Assembly (NCBI GenBank): GCA_965215505.1
Contig: OZ244065.1
Location: 3,744,001-3,808,000, forward strand
Reading direction: 5' to 3'
From: Capsulimonadaceae bacterium
Lineage (GTDB): Bacteria > Armatimonadota > Armatimonadia > Armatimonadales > Capsulimonadaceae
DNA length: 64,000 bases
Both the position numbers and the translations under genes were made by a program. Within the stretch, counting starts at the first letter, position 1; each line of letters opens with the position of its first letter. Under the pieces are notes generated by a model that saw only the letters and a program-made list of their open reading frames with translations, was not told the origin of the DNA and searched no databases. This document shows positions 11,338 through 17,629 of the stretch, piece by piece.

Positions 11338-12309
11338 GTGTATTATTCCCCTAAGATTTCGATGGCCTCCCGCGCCGCCTTCCTGGCTTTGATTCCGGTC
11401 CTGGCGGCCAACGCCCCCCAGGCGTCGCAGGCCCAGACCACTTATGTGGCCGTCGGCGACAGCCTCGCCTACGGCTTCATGGACTTCAATGCCACCCCGA
11501 CCGGGACGGCGGGCTATCCCGGCTACGCCCAGCCCTACGCCGCCTTCCTGAGCAGTCCCGGCAAGACGGTGAGCCTCGTCAACCTTGGCATCGTCGGCGA
11601 AACCACCGACTCCCTGCTGGGCAACTCGGTCGGCAACAGCGCCCTCAACAGCAACTACAGCGTTGCCGCCCCGACCTCCCAGTACGCCCTGCTCTCGGCG
11701 GACCTGAACCCGAACGTCAGCAACGTCACCGTCCAGATCGGCGGCAACGACATCCTCGGCCTGGCCTCGAACCCCGCCTTCCAGGATGCCTTCGTGGACG
11801 GCGATACGGCCACCGCCAACGCGCTCCTGAACGCCACGCTGACGCACATCGGGGCCAACTACAATGCCCTCTTGACCCAGATCAACACGCTGGCACCGGG
11901 CGCGAAGGTGCAGGCGATGGGTTACTACAATCCCTACGCCTTCCTGCCGCCGACGAACCAGAACAACATCTATCTCCAAGCCGTCTCTGGCCCTCTGGAG
12001 CAGGGGCTTAACACCGTGATCGCGCAGGAAGCCGCCCTGCACCACGACCAGTTCGTGGACCTGAATACTGCCTTCGCCGCGCAGGGAAGCCAGTACGGCA
12101 GCTATGTGCTGACCGGCGAGACGATCCCCACCGCCTTCGGCCCCCTCCCCAACGACCACCCGACCGCCCTGGGCTACGGCCTCATCGCCCAGCAGCTTGA
12201 AGCCGCCCCCGTCCCTGAAGCCTCCACCGCGCTCTCCTTCGGCCTCCCGGCAGCCCTGGGGCTTGGCGGCCTGATCGTCGCCGTCCGGCGGAGGAAGAGG
12301 CGGGCGTAG
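11338..12309 (+). CDS. SGNH/GDSL hydrolase with PEP-CTERM sorting signal
   Basis: Signal peptide, VGDSL, GGND, DHPT; C-terminal PVPEAS-TM-RRRKRR. Confidence 0.88.
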   Translation: MYYSPKISMASRAAFLALIPVLAANAPQASQAQTTYVAVGDSLAYGFMDFNATPTGTAGYPGYAQPYAAFLSSPGKTVSLVNLGIVGETTDSLLGNSVGNSALNSNYSVAAPTSQYALLSADLNPNVSNVTVQIGGNDILGLASNPAFQDAFVDGDTATANALLNATLTHIGANYNALLTQINTLAPGAKVQAMGYYNPYAFLPPTNQNNIYLQAVSGPLEQGLNTVIAQEAALHHDQFVDLNTAFAAQGSQYGSYVLTGETIPTAFGPLPNDHPTALGYGLIAQQLEAAPVPEASTALSFGLPAALGLGGLIVAVRRRKRRA

Positions 12310-12604: not shown

Positions 12605-13615
12605 ATGCCATCCTCACCTGCGCCCTACTACGGTTTCAACTTCCTCTGGATGTACGTCTCGGACGGAGAGACGCCCCGCCCGCCCGACGAGCGCGCGCTG
12701 GACTTCCTGGTCCGGACCGGCTTCAACTTCGTGCGCGTCCCGACCAACTACCGCTCCTGGATCAAGGACTTCGACTATTTCCACCCCGACGAGGCCGTCT
12801 TTTCCTACATTGACCGCTACCTCGACGCCTGCCGGTCGCGCGGCCTGCATCTGAGCCTGAACCTGCACCGCGCGCCCGGCTACTGCATCAACAACAACGA
12901 CCTGGAGCGCGACAACCTCTGGCTCGACCCGGTCGCCCAGGACGGGTTCGTCTTCCAGTGGGAGACCTTCACCCGCCGCTTCCTCGGCACCCCCAGTTCC
13001 GCGCTCTCCTTCGACCTCCTGAATGAGCCGCCGAATGTCGGGCAGTACGGCCTGACCCGCGAAAACCACGCCGCCGTCATCCGCCGCGCCGTTCAGGCCA
13101 TCCGCGCGATTGACCCCGCCCGCGAGATCGTCATTGACGGCCTGGGCGGCGGCCACCTCGCCATGCCCGAGCTTGCCGACCTTGGCGTGGTCCACAGCGG
13201 ACGTGGCTACCAGCCCATGCCGGTCAGCCACCACAAGGCAAGCTGGTGGGACGGCCACGCGGCCGCCCCCGCGCCCGAGTATCCCGGCCAGGTGTGGGAG
13301 GGCCGGACGTGGGACCGCGACTCGCTGCGCGAGTTTTACCAGCCCTGGCGGGACGTGGAGGCGGGCGGCGCGCGGGTACACATCGGCGAGTGCGGCTGCT
13401 ACAACAAGACCCCCAACGACATCGTCCTGCGCTGGCTTGGGGACCTGTTCGGCCTGTACAAAGAGTTCGGCTGGGGCTACGCCCTCTGGAACTTCGCCGG
13501 CGACTTCGGCATCGTCGAACACGGCCGCCCCGGCGCGGTCTACGAGGAGCTGCACGGGTACAAAGTGGACCGCGCCCTGCTGGACATCCTAACGGAGAGC
13601 CGCGCATCGGCATGA
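12605..13615 (+). CDS. Glycoside hydrolase family 5
   Basis: NFVRVP, LNLHRAPG, DLLNEP and IGECG motifs. Confidence 0.88.
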   Translation: MPSSPAPYYGFNFLWMYVSDGETPRPPDERALDFLVRTGFNFVRVPTNYRSWIKDFDYFHPDEAVFSYIDRYLDACRSRGLHLSLNLHRAPGYCINNNDLERDNLWLDPVAQDGFVFQWETFTRRFLGTPSSALSFDLLNEPPNVGQYGLTRENHAAVIRRAVQAIRAIDPAREIVIDGLGGGHLAMPELADLGVVHSGRGYQPMPVSHHKASWWDGHAAAPAPEYPGQVWEGRTWDRDSLREFYQPWRDVEAGGARVHIGECGCYNKTPNDIVLRWLGDLFGLYKEFGWGYALWNFAGDFGIVEHGRPGAVYEELHGYKVDRALLDILTESRASA

Positions 13616-13670
13616 CAGAGGACAGGAAGAGGGGGTATAACTCTAACACGACACGCGGGGGACTGAAGAC

Positions 13671-14408
13671 ATGAGACAAGCCAGCTTTGCGGACATTAAC
13701 GAGGACTTCACGGCCCCGCCGTCGGGCTGCCGCGTGGTGCGCGCCGACGCCCTGACGGCATTGGCCGCCGTTCCCGATAGGACCTTCCGCTGCTGCGTCA
13801 CCAGCCCTCCGTACTGGGGCCTGCGCGATTATGATGTTGAACACCAGGTCGGGGCGGAGCCGAGGCTGGAAGATTACATTGCCAACGTGCGCGCCGTCTT
13901 CGCCGAGGTCCGTCGGACGCTGACGGACGACGGGACGCTCTGGCTAAACATTGGGGACAGCTACACAAGCGGGGGGCGGACCTGGCGCGACGCGGACAAG
14001 AAGAACAAGGGCCGGGCGATGGATTACCGCGCGCCTACTCCAGACGGGCTGAACCCCAAGGACCTCATTGGCGTCCCCTGGCGGCTCGCGTTCGCCTTGC
14101 AGGACGACGGCTGGTATCTGCGCTCGGACATCATCTGGCACAAGCCCAACTGCCAGCCGGAGAGCGTCAAGGACCGGCCGACGCGCGCCCATGAATACCT
14201 GTTCCTGTTCTCCAAGTCGGAGAAGTATCACTACGATCACGAGGCCGTCAAGGAGCCAACGGCCACGGCAGGCATGAAAGAGACGGGCCTGAAAAACCGC
14301 CGCTCCGTCTGGTCCGTCAATGAACCGCAGATGAGGCTTCGAAGTGACCTTACTCCTGAGCAGCGAGCATACGTTTTGCGGAGAATTGCCGACGAGGGTT
14401 TGCTCTAG
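13671..14408 (+). CDS. Beta-class amino-DNA methyltransferase (N4-C type), N-terminal fragment with added 28-aa tail
   Basis: VTSPPYWGLRDY, LWLNIGDSY, DLIGVPWRLAFAL, IIWHKPN, HEYLFLF, RRSVWSVN; no FxGxG motif. Confidence 0.9.
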   Translation: MRQASFADINEDFTAPPSGCRVVRADALTALAAVPDRTFRCCVTSPPYWGLRDYDVEHQVGAEPRLEDYIANVRAVFAEVRRTLTDDGTLWLNIGDSYTSGGRTWRDADKKNKGRAMDYRAPTPDGLNPKDLIGVPWRLAFALQDDGWYLRSDIIWHKPNCQPESVKDRPTRAHEYLFLFSKSEKYHYDHEAVKEPTATAGMKETGLKNRRSVWSVNEPQMRLRSDLTPEQRAYVLRRIADEGLL

Positions 14409-15237
14409 TCAGATGGCACCCGCGCGAACAGTACAGAACGCCAGGACGGTCTGCTGTAAACACCTTGCCGCAAGCTTGACACGCTTGGGGATCTCGTTTA
14501 AGGTGTACAGATCGACACGACCGAGAACAATATTTCAAGGTTCGGGAGGTCGCTCTCCGAGAAACGAAAACCTTGCCACACGCGATGCAGGATGCAGTAC
14601 AGCAGGCGTCACAAACTTTAGACGCAGGGGAGCGGGGCGTGAAGTCTACCCCGCACTTTGCACATGGGCGCAAAGGGACAACAAAGGGAAAACGTCGTAG
14701 GTCAGCAATGTCGGGATTGTTCCGCAGGAAGGCTATCTCCGCTTTGCCGTGACACTTGGGGCAGAGAGTAACAAGGTTTTCAATCTTGTTGGCATGGCGG
14801 TAGTCGGTAAACAGGTGGAACGGCGTGACATGATGCACAGGCAATCCACGGGCGATTATTCCACAGTGCTGACAAGTATCGTTGTCCCGCTTCCTGGCAG
14901 CGATTCTCTGGCGGTTCCAGTTTTCGCCACGATAGCTCATATGGCCGCCCTGCCATGTCGAGTTGTTTGGGCCGCTCATAATTCCAGAAGACCGCCATTT
15001 GGCCGCGCAGGATCGGCCGCAGAAGTTGTGTTCTTTGAGGCTACTTGGGCTGCGCTCTATCGTTCTGCCGCACATGAAGCAAGGAACCGAAACTTTCTTG
15101 GAGCCTACGCCTTTACGATGAGCCTGTTGCCATTTGCCGTAGCACGACAATCCGCAGAAATGGTTCACGGACAGCCCCGCCATGTAGGGCTTTGCCTGGT
15201 ACGGTGAGCCGCATTCATCACATGTTAGGGTGATCAT
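14350..15237 (-). CDS. HNH endonuclease with multiple C4 zinc ribbons (homing-endonuclease-like)
   Basis: CQHCG..LPVHHVTP..NKIENLVTLCPKCH, plus repeated CxxC...(F/Y)CxxxC units; lower GC. Confidence 0.88.
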   Translation of the reverse strand: MITLTCDECGSPYQAKPYMAGLSVNHFCGLSCYGKWQQAHRKGVGSKKVSVPCFMCGRTIERSPSSLKEHNFCGRSCAAKWRSSGIMSGPNNSTWQGGHMSYRGENWNRQRIAARKRDNDTCQHCGIIARGLPVHHVTPFHLFTDYRHANKIENLVTLCPKCHGKAEIAFLRNNPDIADLRRFPFVVPLRPCAKCGVDFTPRSPASKVCDACCTASCIACGKVFVSRRATSRTLKYCSRSCRSVHLKRDPQACQACGKVFTADRPGVLYCSRGCHLTRANPRRQFSAKRMLAAQE

Positions 15238-15270
15238 GCTCTATCATACGCTCTAAATGGAAAATCGTCA

Positions 15271-15591
15271 ATGAACATCACTTTGCGCCGGGACGAGATA
15301 CCCGATGACCTGCTAGAGTTTTTCGAGGATGCTGATACGCAGGCAAAAACGGACGTGTTCCGTGTCAACACCGAAGCCTTCCGCGAAGCGCACTTCGCCA
15401 CCTTCCCTACCAAACTTGTCGAGCCGTGCATCCTGGCCGGGTCGGAGCCGGGCGACACGGTCCTTGACCCCTTCCTCGGCTCCGGCACGGTCGGGCTGGT
15501 GGCCTGCCGACTGGATCGGAAGTTCTTGGGGGTGGAGTTGAGCGAGGAATACGCCTCAATCGCCCGGCGGCGGCTGGGCTGGACTAAATAG
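15271..15591 (+). CDS. DNA methyltransferase C-terminal (SAM-binding) fragment with added N-terminal leader
   Basis: EAHFATFP..LVEPCILAGS..VLDPFLGSGT..GVEL. Confidence 0.88.
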   Translation: MNITLRRDEIPDDLLEFFEDADTQAKTDVFRVNTEAFREAHFATFPTKLVEPCILAGSEPGDTVLDPFLGSGTVGLVACRLDRKFLGVELSEEYASIARRRLGWTK

Positions 15592-15750
15592 GTTCTGCTC
15601 CGGCGGGGGCGGTGTATCTTCCGGGGCGGGAGCGACGGTGGGGATGATCCAGGAGACGTGCCGAACGCAGAACTCTATTTGCAGGCCGGAGATGGTGATC
15701 TTGCCGTCGCTCCCGTCCAGGCGCAGTGTGAACGCAGGCCGCCCATCAAT

Positions 15751-16846
15751 AGATACTCCGTGAAATAGAGAAAGGGGTTGTCCCTGCCGAAGATTGTGGC
15801 ATGAACCTGACCCAACTGCACCGCCTGCCCAAAGACCGTGTCCGTGCCCTCTTCGGCCTCGACCCCGCCGCCCTCGGCCAACTGCTGGCCGCCGTCCTGC
15901 CCCCGCTTGTGGGGAAGCGGCACGCCTAACAGGAGGCCAAGGGGAAGCGGCACGCCCAACAGGAGGCCAAGAGGAACCGGCAGCGCGCCGTCGGCGGCGG
16001 GCGCAGGCGCAAGCTGCTCCCGTACCAGGAGGTTTTGATCACCCTGGTCTACCTGCGCCACAACGTCTCCCACGCCGTCTCCCACGCCGTCTGCGGCCAG
16101 ATGTTCGGCGTCAGCGCCGACATCAGCGAGAACAGCTTCCACGAGGTCATCCGGCTCTTGCGCGACGTGTGCCCCGCCGACCGCTGGGGCGCCGAGAAGA
16201 AGTGGACCAAGAGGGAGCCGTCGTGGCACCCCGACACGCTGGACCTGATCCTGGTGGACAGCTTCGAGACCCCCATCGGCCGGTCGAGCCTGCCGGACGT
16301 GCAGCGCAAGTTCTACTCGGGCAAGAAGAAGCGCCACACGACCAAGACACAGATCATTACCAACAAGCAGGGCGAGGTGCTTGCCATTGAGCCGGGGCAC
16401 CCCGGCCCTAAGTCCGATAAGAAGCTCTACGAACAAAGCCGGGCCAAAGATCAGTACCCGCAACGGGCCAAAGATCAGTACCCGCAAGCGGCGCGTCGGG
16501 CGGACCTTGCGTATGTGGGCGTGCCGGAGATGCTGCTGCCGCACAAGAAGGTGCGGGGCAAAGCAGGCGAGAAAGCCCTGCCGCTGACGCCGGAGCAGCA
16601 GGAAGAGAACCGGCACGCGGCGTCGGCGCGTGTCCCGGTGGAGCACGGGGTACGCCGGGTGAAGGCGTGGCGCATCCTGCGCGACGAGTACCGTCTGGCG
16701 CGGGGCCTGTTCTCGACGATCGCGCTGGCGACGGTGGGGCTGGTTCATCTGAGCCGTGTTGTGCCTGGATGAAGCCAAGCCGGAACAGAAGGGCGGCTGC
16801 GCCGCCCAGCTCACCCGGCAAGACATGGCTATTTCACGGAGCATCT
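15751..16846 (+). mobile_element. IS5-family-like insertion sequence (1096 bp)
   Basis: 18-bp TIRs AGATACTCCGTGAAATAG / CTATTTCACGGAGCATCT (1 mismatch); AAT duplicated on both sides. Confidence 0.9.
15801..16772 (+). pseudogene. DDE transposase with an in-frame stop at 15927-15929
   Basis: LVDSFE, YSGKKKRHT, ADLAYVG and RVPVEHGVRRVK motifs; TAA lies in the first copy of a 30-bp tandem duplication. Confidence 0.82.
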
Positions 16847-17629
16847 AATGGTGACCTTCACACTGCTACCGCCTTGGGAGGTCCGGGGACTGAAATCGGC
16901 GGACGTCAGGGCGGCAACGCGCCCCAGAACGTCGCGCGGTATCTCCACGATCTCGCAGAGCAGTCGGGTCGCCGACACGTCCCGTGCGCGGAGTACGAGG
17001 ATGCGGTCGTACTGGCTGAGGTGGGCTGGTATCCGCCGCGCGGCTTCCCGAGCCAGGTCTTCCAGCGTGGAGAACTGCTGTATCCAACGCGCCTCGGTGA
17101 ACTTGGAGATGGTGATCTTGTCCGGGCGGATGTCTTTAGAGGCTTCCGTTTTCAGCGAGAGCTTGACGCCTTCAACGGTCACGTCAATGCCGGAGAAGGT
17201 GTCACTGACAGTGATCGTCTCGGCCCTGCCATCGGCTGCACAGGCTCCCCTGAAGGCGTATTCAAACGCCTTCTTGCTCAACCGGGCTTCGTTCGTCGCG
17301 TGATGGATGAGGAGGCGGTTGCGAGAATCAGCCGTGAAGCGGGGCGTGGCAAAATCACTGGCCGGGTTGACGGTTTCCTCGACCTGACGCATCATCGTCC
17401 GGGCGACTTCGGTCAGCAACTCCACTTGAATCGGGTCAAGCCTCGTCGCGACCGAGATCAGTTCCCGAAGGGCGGTGCGTTCCTCGGCTTCGTCGGGCGG
17501 TTGATCGTCTCGCAGCATCACACCGAATTTAACACAGATTCCATCAGGAGTCAAACCCCATTGGGAAAGGCCGAGCGCAACGCGCCCGGCCTTCTGCTAT
17601 CCGACTGTGGGTGAAGGAGGTTGCTCGCC

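Follow-up and report, generated by a model that had tools for sequence, protein, structure and literature searches.

Homing endonuclease genes are thought to persist inside other genes by way of introns or inteins that mend the damage and, where an intein is split, its two parts measure about 100 and 35-40 amino acids (aa). One experimental case of a third way, in which the insert itself bears peptide tails, is the NrdA protein of phage Aeh1, where tails derived from mobE were shown by experiment to aid assembly into active enzyme (Crona et al. 2011, PMC3045599). According to that report, these tails, with pI values of 10.4 and 3.8, are not needed for the association of the two fragments, only for higher-order assembly, and are unique to one phage; its authors expected variable tails that would escape similarity searches. 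In addition, work on engineered, bisected M.HhaI and M.SssI indicates that methyltransferase fragments can reassemble to active enzyme (e.g. PMC2836561, PMC3439449).

The locus described here lies in a window of 64,000 nucleotides from a Capsulimonadaceae bacterium, the whole stretch of DNA that was analysed. As in Aeh1 (PMC3045599), a free-standing endonuclease gene of the HNH family divides an enzyme gene, the insert provides a C-terminal tail for the first fragment and an N-terminal one (the leader) for the second, the leader is acidic and the tail more basic than it (family means -4.4 and +1.1, the tail of the window being at 0), and splicing of RNA or protein appears to play no part. Unlike the Aeh1 tails, those found here belong to a conserved sequence family, present in 111 of 124 examined proteins, which occurs at at least five break sites and with several unrelated endonuclease genes or none; tail function has been demonstrated for Aeh1, whereas for the window family it is presumed. 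With the 'fractured genes' of Dassa et al. (2009, PMC2677866), the locus shares the order of host N-part with peptide, endonuclease gene, and peptide with host C-part, a setting of mostly phage-like DNA, and control elements that arrive with the nuclease gene. It differs from them in that the window family has no intein blocks or conserved nucleophiles, in that its added peptides are of about 28 and 25-33 aa, and in that any reunion of the halves would be non-covalent. The ShiLan domain of mycobacteriophage methylases (Arsenault et al. 2025, PMC11855218), which has a similarly sporadic distribution, likewise places an HNH gene in a phage-type DNA methylase with no detectable intron or intein, but reads through in frame without a stop, its HNH gene lying out of frame on the same strand, whereas in the window family the reading frame stops and restarts and both peptides are conserved; that paper does not use the word 'split'. 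The bisected M.HhaI and M.SssI (PMC2836561, PMC3439449) are artificial C5 enzymes; fused DNA-binding domains, in place of natural peptide extensions, join their fragments. We found no published account of a conserved, portable tail/leader family; the first-pass annotation, made from the letters of the window, had called the pair the best candidate for an undescribed system, a view that is not supported given the precedent of the Aeh1 tails.

Results

An inserted cassette divides a DNA methyltransferase gene

Positions 14322-15369 of the window coincide exactly with an inserted cassette of 1,048 bp, with a GC content (0.51-0.565) below that of the flanking methyltransferase gene (0.60-0.70). 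In four congeners (L086-L089) the same methyltransferase runs without interruption, its N-part (77-86% identical to that of the window at the amino acid level) being joined to its C-part at SVN|TEAF. The conserved site in the host gene is therefore empty in close relatives at exactly this point, as for a homing cassette, and these four joins confirm to the letter the extent of the insert given in the first-pass annotation. Within its own genome the insert is present as a single copy, and a search of that genome found no second copy, nor a second tail or leader. The open reading frames and peptides are also as first described: the insert supplies the N-half with a 28-aa tail and a stop codon, running antisense to the 3' end of the HNH gene over 59 nt, and the C-half with a 33-aa leader, its ATG and, ahead of these, a Shine-Dalgarno-like site that is degenerate in the window. 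Uninterrupted homologues lack these terminal extensions. The features of the region are as follows.

13671-14321, + strand: host part of the methyltransferase N-fragment, from motif IV (SPPY) to RRSVWSVN; PF01555 positions 2-145, collinear with L086-L089 to the junction
14322-15369, unstranded: whole cassette (tail, HNH gene, spacer, leader and second VWxIN copy); absent from four congeners, distinct in GC, single copy
14322-14408, + strand: insert-encoded 28-aa tail EPQMRLRSDLTPEQRAYVLRRIADEGLL with stop codon; kept in 15 loci, with codon pattern and profile matches
14350-15237, - strand: HNH endonuclease gene, 295 aa, with many CxxC pairs; PF01844, phrog_1271, 34 homologues
15238-15270, unstranded: spacer of 33 nt; Shine-Dalgarno-like site on the + strand, promoter-like site on the - strand
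15271-15345, + strand: insert-encoded acidic leader MNITLRRDEIPDDLLEFFEDADTQA; kept in 18 loci, with codon pattern, net charge -5
15346-15369, + strand: KTDVFRVN, insert-borne second copy of the host motif RRSVWSVN; both copies in every locus
15370-15591, + strand: host part of the methyltransferase C-fragment (motif X HFATFP, motif I DPFLGSGT); PF01555 positions 142-220, collinear with L086-L089
16829-17554, - strand: intact SmaI-family restriction endonuclease gene of cognate type; PF17411, congener orthologues

The N-half reading frame (13671-14408, + strand, 245 aa) ends in RRSVWSVN followed by EPQMRLRSDLTPEQRAYVLRRIADEGLL and the stop, and that of the C-half (15271-15591, + strand, 106 aa) begins with MNITLRRDEIPDDLLEFFEDADTQA and KTDVFRVN. 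Both match PF01555 (Pfam) far above its cut-off, over profile positions 2-145 (E 2.2e-28) and 142-220 (E 2.9e-22) of 221, and both SPPY and DPFLGSGT are found, which places the divided enzyme among the PF01555 N6/N4 DNA methyltransferases (beta class). The reading of KTDVFRVN as a second version of RRSVWSVN holds at every locus, each of which has both copies. Exact direct repeats at the two junctions measure 10-13 nt in five loci (L006, L007, L009, L010 and L012) and only 5 nt in the window.

A group I or II intron or other known RNA element was rejected, since positions 13000-16500 gave no Rfam match at E<=1 on either strand, as was an in-frame, hidden-HNH insertion of the ShiLan type, since the host frame stops at 14406-14408 and restarts at 15271. 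A split intein or fractured gene was also rejected: neither methyltransferase half matches an intein family (Pfam) and the junction residues vary, and real inteins in relatives are detectable (PF14890 in 3 of the 124 proteins examined). It appears very improbable that tail and leader instead derive from a split intein or other splicing element that has degenerated. True inteins do occur in this methyltransferase family (L019, L098 and P0039), the fractured-gene layout is one of split intein, free-standing endonuclease gene and split intein (PMC2677866), and Crona et al. raise such an origin for the Aeh1 tails (PMC3045599). The two peptides together, however, amount to about 55-60 aa. Directly after the N-junction the residue is variable (E, Q, K, M, T or G) and non-nucleophilic except for T in two loci, and that at the C-junction varies as well (N, S, R, A, G or P); the absence of intein-family matches in the halves and of Rfam matches in the region weighs on the same side.

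The antisense reading frame in the cassette matches the PF01844 HNH family (E 1.1e-6, 29.1 bits against a cut-off of 21.4) and phrog_1271 (PHROGs, E 1.4e-34). We identified 34 homologues of this enzyme, 19 of them at 44-95% identity, and the HNH proteins at 18 loci of the same architecture are 38-59% identical to it over the best aligned segment. On its - strand the spacer carries a promoter-like TTGACG-17-TATGAT (15271 to 15243, matching 10 of 12 consensus positions) ahead of the HNH gene, and on its + strand a TGGAG...ATG that is kept in most loci, with a degenerate TGGAA in the window. Contigs from two sequencing runs (X3 and X4) match the window to within 1-2 letters over a tract that opens at about 14073/14157, takes in the insert and closes at 15575/15700, and diverge by 2-4.5% farther upstream, leaving a near-identical left flank of about 170-250 nt; this pattern, seen in contigs only, is what would be expected from homing with co-conversion of flanks. 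In run X7, a low-depth contig (depth 3.1, side 30, likeness 85) runs directly from 14278 into 15517, and this single weak contig may represent the empty allele of a relative.

Tail and leader are conserved beside a restriction gene

The tail consensus RLRDDLTPEQRAYVL and the leader consensus MEIILRxxEIPxDLxEFFEP were found in 18 metagenomic or MAG loci. The leader is kept in all 18 loci with homologous insertions, and the tail in all 15 whose contig extends to that side, with a frameshift in one. In the peptides' own frames variation is greatest at third codon positions and least at second (mean pairwise differences at positions 1/2/3: leader core 0.37/0.22/0.64, tail core 0.43/0.20/0.64), which is the pattern of protein-level purifying selection. 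Furthermore, L013 retains the tail although its HNH gene does not overlap it. The first-pass annotation had seen in the peptides evolved elements and not random read-through, a view that would have failed had they not been conserved among homologous insertions; their conservation there, the codon pattern and 110 further tail-ended representative proteins (see below) all bear it out.

Downstream of the split gene lies a SmaI-family gene without stops (PF17411, E 1.2e-17, 64.6 bits against a curated cut-off of 27.3). Its orthologues (85, 68 and 65% identical) adjoin the uninterrupted methyltransferase convergently in three of four congeners; in the window an IS stands between the methyltransferase and the restriction gene. 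The presence of a SmaI-family endonuclease gene beside the methyltransferase identifies the pair as a SmaI-type restriction-modification system, and the genome contains 77 copies of CCCGGG against 4,582 expected. No SmaI-like gene was found in the available flanks of other split loci. Since the nearby restriction gene is intact, the split methyltransferase probably has to function, although the restriction sites could be protected instead by another methyltransferase of the genome. A split copy can decay, as it has in L004, the one locus of 16 assessable in which the C-fragment is degenerate; in the other 15 it is an open frame with motif I. The decay in L004 would favour functionless read-through from a dead methyltransferase gene, an explanation to which we attach hardly any credence given the selection pattern on the peptides, the intact fragments in 15 of 16 loci, the retention of the tail in more than 100 diverged clusters and the intact restriction gene nearby.

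One peptide family marks many break points of PF01555 methyltransferases

A tail profile search among 1.84 billion representatives gave 123 matches at E<=0.001, which together with P0036 made up the 124 proteins examined. A true tail is present in 111, its end lying within 25 aa of the C-terminus in 105 of these, and 76 of the 124 match PF01555. In 107 of the 111 the body falls into one methyltransferase similarity group, shared with all 61 motif-IV bodies; the remaining four are too short for judgement. By tail profile there are 110 further protein clusters, almost all of them C-terminal ends of PF01555 fragments. The first-pass annotation had suggested that profile searches might find the peptides on split genes, including non-methyltransferase hosts: split PF01555 genes were indeed recovered, and the part concerning other hosts found no support, in view of the similarity group just described.

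Tail-bearing PF01555 fragments show at least five different break sites, and three middle pieces (P0035, P0037 and P0039) carry both a leader and a tail. Depending on the locus, a different HNH gene, a small ORF or no gene lies between tail and leader. In L098 the pair stands at the same site as in the window, around an HNH_5 gene without detectable similarity to the HNH of the window; in L041 it lies just past motif IV, accompanied by an HTH-HNH gene that runs in sense; and in L097 it flanks a small non-HNH ORF. In addition, 75 Mycobacterium phage records have a tail match inside a DNA methylase gene, and in the two examined (Bunnies and Philus) a leader mini-ORF follows 75 nt after the tail with no nuclease gene between, a 7-nt frame break separating leader and C-fragment. 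Two natural in-frame fusions of tail to leader were found (P0067 and P0105); a short tail-leader join is therefore tolerated, as would be expected if the tail and leader helices lie side by side. Judged by their sequences, tail and leader are one family, which marks where PF01555 methyltransferases are split irrespective of the nuclease gene that it encloses.

Word-indexed searches of a 5.8-billion-protein set, limited by length range and to exact words, returned four matches for the tail region, all PF01555, and for the leader region only the window's own protein. A tblastn search of phages with the leader gave no match, a viral-contig scan with leader alignment A3 gave two loci, and of the 109 methyltransferase loci recovered by viral scans with P0152 and P0045, none has a tail or leader at E<=0.01. 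Tail subtypes (..SELAKA..ISDATQEG) and leader subtypes (..HLLKFFKP) were noted at the LNLGDSY break, not together in one locus. Tail and leader subtypes also appear to co-vary, ..ELxxRGLL tails going with D/N-VP leaders, an association confounded by common ancestry.

The diversity of passengers bears on whether the peptides serve the endonuclease gene, by translational coupling, expression control or nuclease binding, and not the methyltransferase. We regard this as improbable. Although in the window the tail is antisense to the HNH 3' end and a promoter-like site for the HNH gene lies in the spacer beside the leader, the peptides are retained around unrelated HNH genes (L098 and L041) and around a non-HNH ORF (L097), and the two mycobacteriophage records examined have them with no gene between; the tail is kept in L013 without overlap, and the codon pattern is that of selection in the peptide frames.

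Physical character of the peptides

The leader was called acidic in the first-pass annotation, and its core indeed has a mean net charge of -4.4 (17 loci), the window's own copy standing at -5; its helix is moderately amphipathic (helical hydrophobic moment z 1.0-2.2, 17 loci). The tail, which had been described as amphipathic, is not distinguishable as such by helical moment (z 0.5 in the window, -1.3 to 1.1 over 15 loci) and is only weakly basic: its net charge averages +1.1 across 15 loci and is 0 for the window's own copy. A simple charge zipper is therefore doubtful. Complex prediction for a tail piece (36 aa, alignment A2) and a leader piece (44 aa, A3), run without controls, scored 0.16 against a mark of 0.32, a value that speaks neither for nor against contact. 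An AlphaFold2 model of the natural fusion P0067 (alignment A8; mean pLDDT 64.8) has a tail helix at 284-295 (pLDDT about 60-70) and a leader part below 50, and is uninformative for the insert because MAFFT could not place the leader rows. Searches of Pfam and PHROGs with the peptides alone gave sub-threshold noise only (DUF7433, E 0.011).

The absence of distinguishable amphipathicity in the tail is one of several observations that would suit peptides contributing to the split enzyme otherwise than by docking on each other, each packing on the methyltransferase core or DNA. They might cap the new chain ends, promote oligomers or replace the cut loop, which is the place of the target-recognition region in beta-class enzymes. 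The family occurs on PF01555 fragments only, a second VWxIN copy travels with the leader, and the Aeh1 tails are dispensable for fragment association and essential for activity (PMC3045599). A site-specific patch is nevertheless hard to square with one pair at at least five structurally different break sites, the tail is always accompanied by the leader at a break, and the natural fusions connect tail straight to leader; we consider this alternative unlikely.

Discussion

The explanation that we favour, and hold with some reserve to be the probable one, is that a homing-endonuclease cassette split a SmaI-type methyltransferase whose fragments are assembled by tail and leader acting as interaction extensions. 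The cassette entered a methyltransferase gene of SmaI type (PF01555, with SPPY) between motifs VIII and X and made two genes of it. From the cassette the upstream fragment has its conserved C-terminal tail and stop codon, and the downstream fragment its conserved acidic leader together with a start codon and presumed ribosome-binding site. Through tail and leader the separately translated fragments would then form an active enzyme, and their assembly would render the insertion harmless for a host equipped with the restriction enzyme as well. We infer both the physical contact of tail with leader and the activity of the split enzyme. By analogy, the role of the pair is most likely that established experimentally for the mobE-derived tails of Aeh1 NrdA, and the pair probably helps the methyltransferase pieces to work together. 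The family was found on PF01555 fragments only, whereas one would expect to meet a general docking tag in further hosts as well; given this single host family, the peptides may instead stand in for, or supplement, a structural feature peculiar to methyltransferases.

More tentatively, and as a joint reading that we find possible but would not call probable, the tail/leader pair may be a self-contained, portable 'split-and-dock' module, a third vehicle for homing endonucleases beside self-splicing introns and inteins. Such a module would move to new gene positions, swap its nuclease passenger and outlive the nuclease, and the host protein would be restored non-covalently by a small two-peptide domain. 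If the break-site subtypes were mutually orthogonal, this would explain the correct assembly of enzymes in three or more pieces and would provide ready-made natural docking tags.

A recognisable and widespread tail family, reused with different nuclease genes at many break points of one enzyme family, turns the single Aeh1 anecdote into a phenomenon open to counting, alignment and testing. If the peptides dock on each other, they would also be short natural parts for protein-fragment complementation. For the biology of these elements, the prediction is that restriction-paired methyltransferases are homes indispensable to the cell, and this would account for the success of the solution in them.

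An HNH insert divides the methyltransferase gene

The window harbours a methyltransferase gene divided by an antisense HNH gene, with a restriction gene close by.

13671-14408, + strand: methyltransferase N-fragment, 245 aa (PF01555 profile positions 2-145, E 2.2e-28)
14350-15237, - strand: HNH gene, 295 aa (PF01844 HNH at residues 122-165; many CxxC pairs)
15271-15591, + strand: methyltransferase C-fragment, 106 aa (PF01555 positions 142-220, E 2.9e-22)
15801-16772, + strand: IS with a DDE_Tnp_4 transposase (16035-16772), between methyltransferase and restriction gene
16829-17554, - strand: intact SmaI-family restriction endonuclease gene, 241 aa (PF17411, E 1.2e-17)

The N-fragment ends in RRSVWSVN-EPQMRLRSDLTPEQRAYVLRRIADEGLL and a stop codon, the added tail overlapping the HNH 3' end by 59 nt in antisense, while the C-fragment opens with a leader, MNITLRRDEIPDDLLEFFEDADTQA-KTDVFRVN-TEAFREAHFATFP. 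These ORFs, peptides and the overlap, all described in the first-pass annotation, were reproduced in the ORF listing and sequence. In a search of 41 related genomes, N-part orthologs were identified in four congeners (79-86% identity, open frames of 289-313 aa), in each of which the match to window residues 1-217 directly abuts the C-part match, ..SVWS(L/I/V)(N/H) being followed at once by T(E)..HFATFP. Since the two parts join directly in all four, the insert can be delimited to 14322-15369 (1,048 bp), exactly the interval first proposed. Its GC content is 0.51-0.565, as against 0.60-0.70 in the flanking gene; it is present once in its own 6.18-Mb genome, and an Rfam scan of the insert region returned no family at E<=1.

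The arrangement and its peptides are conserved across loci

The window HNH protein has 34 homologs in a set of 5.8 billion proteins, 19 of them at 44-95% identity. Using tblastn with the three window proteins, we compared 81 loci (one MAG locus, L004, and 80 metagenome loci), and found that 18 (L004-L019, L021 and L074) share the order N-fragment, antisense HNH, C-fragment. HNH identity to the window enzyme is 40-59% in these loci, except in the truncated L074 (38% over 66 aa). One further locus, L020, has a related HNH gene yet no methyltransferase flank by tblastn. The leader is present in 18/18 loci (consensus MEIILRxxEIPxDLxEFFEPV, leader alignment A3) and the tail in all 15 whose contig extends beyond the HNH gene on the tail side (EPxxRLRDDLTPEQRAYVLxxLxxxG.., tail alignment A2). 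L004 is decayed, with its tail out of frame and its C-fragment truncated; C-fragment motif I is kept in 15 of 16 assessable loci, the window included.

Averaged over sequence pairs in the codon alignments, the differences at positions 1/2/3 were 0.37/0.22/0.64 in the leader core and 0.43/0.20/0.64 in the tail core, a pattern that is the signature of protein-coding constraint in both frames, as judged from sequence. In L011-L013, L017 and L018 the HNH protein has a different C-terminus or one that ends before the tail (with no overlap at all in L013), and because the tail is retained there, its conservation does not follow from antisense coding of the HNH C-terminus. The suggestion that the peptides are evolved elements is thus borne out by conservation across loci and by protein-level constraint in their own frames.

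KTDVFRVN, encoded by the final eight leader codons, is a second copy of the pre-insert host motif RRSVWSVN, and both copies are found in all loci. The two junctions share 10-13 identical nt in L006, L007, L009, L010 and L012, and just 5 in the window. Because congener sequence resembles the window's upstream copy and not its downstream one, the second copy here arrived with the insert.

Most loci keep a GGAG, degenerate in the window, about 9 nt upstream of the leader ATG. The 33-nt spacer also holds a site that resembles a promoter of the HNH gene (TTGACG-17-TATGAT, 10/12 consensus matches), and in other loci a TATAAT-like box, read by eye, lies a few nt upstream of the HNH start. The -10-like box stands just 6-10 nt before that start, both in the window (15243-15271, - strand) and in the spacers of L005-L019, a position that points to a nuclease transcript that is leaderless or almost so. 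Transcripts of the methyltransferase would cross the nuclease gene in antisense.

None of the sequencing runs containing this stretch is of RNA; contigs from four DNA-type runs were compared over 13600-15700. Run X3 has one contig spanning 14073-15700 that departs from the window at 1 position, and contigs that are 2-4% divergent over 13600-14099. Run X4 shows 2 mismatches in a contig across 14157-15575, against 19 in 424 over 13600-14023. Such a mosaic is expected after homing with flank co-conversion; ordinary recombination may also produce it.

The tail marks several break sites in one enzyme family

A tail-only profile (alignment A4, 32 positions), searched against 1.84 billion representative proteins, gave 123 matches at E<=0.001. 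Together with protein P0036 these made 124 proteins, 76 of which match PF01555. A tail of >=20 bits is present in 111, and the remaining 13 are multi-stretch repeat proteins. No more than 25 aa separate the tail's end from the C-terminus in 105 of the 111. The first-pass annotation had suggested looking for these peptides on non-methyltransferase hosts as well, an idea that the profile search did not support: no such host was found among the 124 proteins, 107 of the 111 bodies being joined by similarity into one methyltransferase group (including all 61 with a [DS]PP[YF] motif) and the other four proteins being only 31-56 aa long.

Break sites among the 111 tails
..RxVWxI, the window's site: 59
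..AKASxxER, in DPPY-type enzymes, topologically the same place as the window's: 19
..LNLGDSY: 6
shortly after motif IV: 2
..DGW: 1
unsorted, most falling by eye in the named classes: 24

Three proteins (P0035, P0037 and P0039) are middle pieces that open with a leader and close with a tail; in shuffled controls the leader pattern occurred in 0/22,200.

The gene between the peptides varies. L041, split just after motif IV, has a tail ..VIRADLPPEKRAAVIAELAARGIF, a sense HTH-HNH gene and a leader VSIYRKDQIPPHLLECFEP. In the viral contig L098, split at the window's site, the peptides surround a sense HNH_5 gene with no similarity to the window HNH (best E 1.1), and in L097 a 105-aa non-HNH ORF. 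Tail matches also lie inside the DNA methylase gene in 75 Mycobacterium phage records. In two of these, Bunnies and Philus, the gene ends ..KLRLRADLTPEQVDHVVARLREAGVEID (stop), followed after 75 nt by MRDFNVDEIPADIRPYFEE..AHPT (stop), with no nuclease gene between tail and leader; 7 extra nt (TAGAGCC) break the frame in motif X, between HPT and VKP, before the C-fragment. Their methylase is annotated as two genes flanking a 29-aa 'hypothetical protein' (Bunnies, L095 1480-1840; Philus, L096), which is the leader plus ..VAHPT. With its passenger gene varied or absent, the tail/leader pair therefore outlives and outnumbers any single endonuclease gene. In-frame tail-leader fusions occur in P0067 (residues 270-325), a 442-aa methyltransferase that contains ..QRIAGG-DEIPADLMEF.., and in P0105 (residues 450-526); they suggest that the nuclease gene was deleted. 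Both fusions form a scar of ~50 aa within an otherwise complete enzyme.

Other insertions were noted in this methyltransferase family. More distant antisense HNH relatives lie near motif I (DPFxGSGTT) in L041 (2025-2870), L038, L050 and L043/L047, with the last ~40 codons present again past the insert; supplying a replacement 3' end seems to be another way to spare the host gene. True inteins with a LAGLIDADG-type domain occur between HFA and C (motif X) and between KPN and C (L019 1-1263, -; L098 513-2399 and 2980-4584, +; P0039), and some of these genes hold the tail/HNH/leader cassette alongside two inteins.

The split enzyme neighbours a restriction gene

The restriction gene lies ~1.2 kb downstream of the split methyltransferase, in convergent orientation, and in 3 of 4 congeners directly adjoins the uninterrupted one (85, 68 and 65% identity). 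The split gene (13671-15591, +) is, by prediction, part of a SmaI-type restriction-modification pair, whose SPPY-type enzymes presumably make N4-methylcytosine. CCCGGG occurs 77 times in the 6.18-Mb genome against 4,582 expected (fourth-order model), a sign of long exposure to a SmaI-type enzyme; GGGCCC (126 vs 3,990) and CCGCGG (746 vs 5,976) are likewise strongly depleted. Were the restriction enzyme active, we infer that methyltransferase loss would be lethal; the restriction gene could be silent, or another enzyme could protect its sites.

Just upstream of the transposase gene, a ~33-nt segment stands twice in tandem at about 15905-15975, and 16060-16090 holds a short tandem duplication. 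Elsewhere, the ORF list includes a GDSL-type secreted protein (11338-12309, +) with a PEP-CTERM-like C-terminal sorting signal, VPEAST..GLGGLIVAVRRRKRRA.

A probable role in assembly

Tail and leader are, on these comparative grounds, functional elements. Because the conserved pair always stands at a chain break, at any site, and because the fragments are intact and here lie beside a restriction gene, the best-fitting reading is that the two peptides probably help the separately translated fragments to assemble into an active methyltransferase. In both, a short extended stretch appears to lead into a helix (xxRLR and TPEQRAYVLxxL; EIIL and IPxDLxEFFE); AlphaFold2 modelled a helix in the tail and none in the leader. 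The leader is acidic and the tail mildly basic on average, with no amphipathicity in the tail by helical moment.

The first-pass annotation had proposed a heterodimerising tag pair. Each peptide may instead pack on the enzyme and not on its partner: the family is confined to one enzyme family, and in phage Aeh1, whose NrdA gene is split by mobE, Crona et al. 2011 (PMC3045599) describe insert-derived tails needed for activity and not for fragment association. The same authors give these tails pI values of 10.4 and 3.8 and propose a general mechanism. Split inteins flanking free-standing endonuclease genes were described by Dassa et al. 2009 (PMC2677866). Arsenault et al. 2025 (PMC11855218), who make no mention of split genes, reported mycobacteriophage methylases with in-frame insertions that conceal an HNH gene. 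Full-text literature searches, thin in subscription journals, returned no title or abstract on tails and leaders conserved as a family among split methyltransferases. The principle of insert-derived assembly tails thus has one experimental precedent, and a conserved, portable family of them is, as far as we have seen, new.
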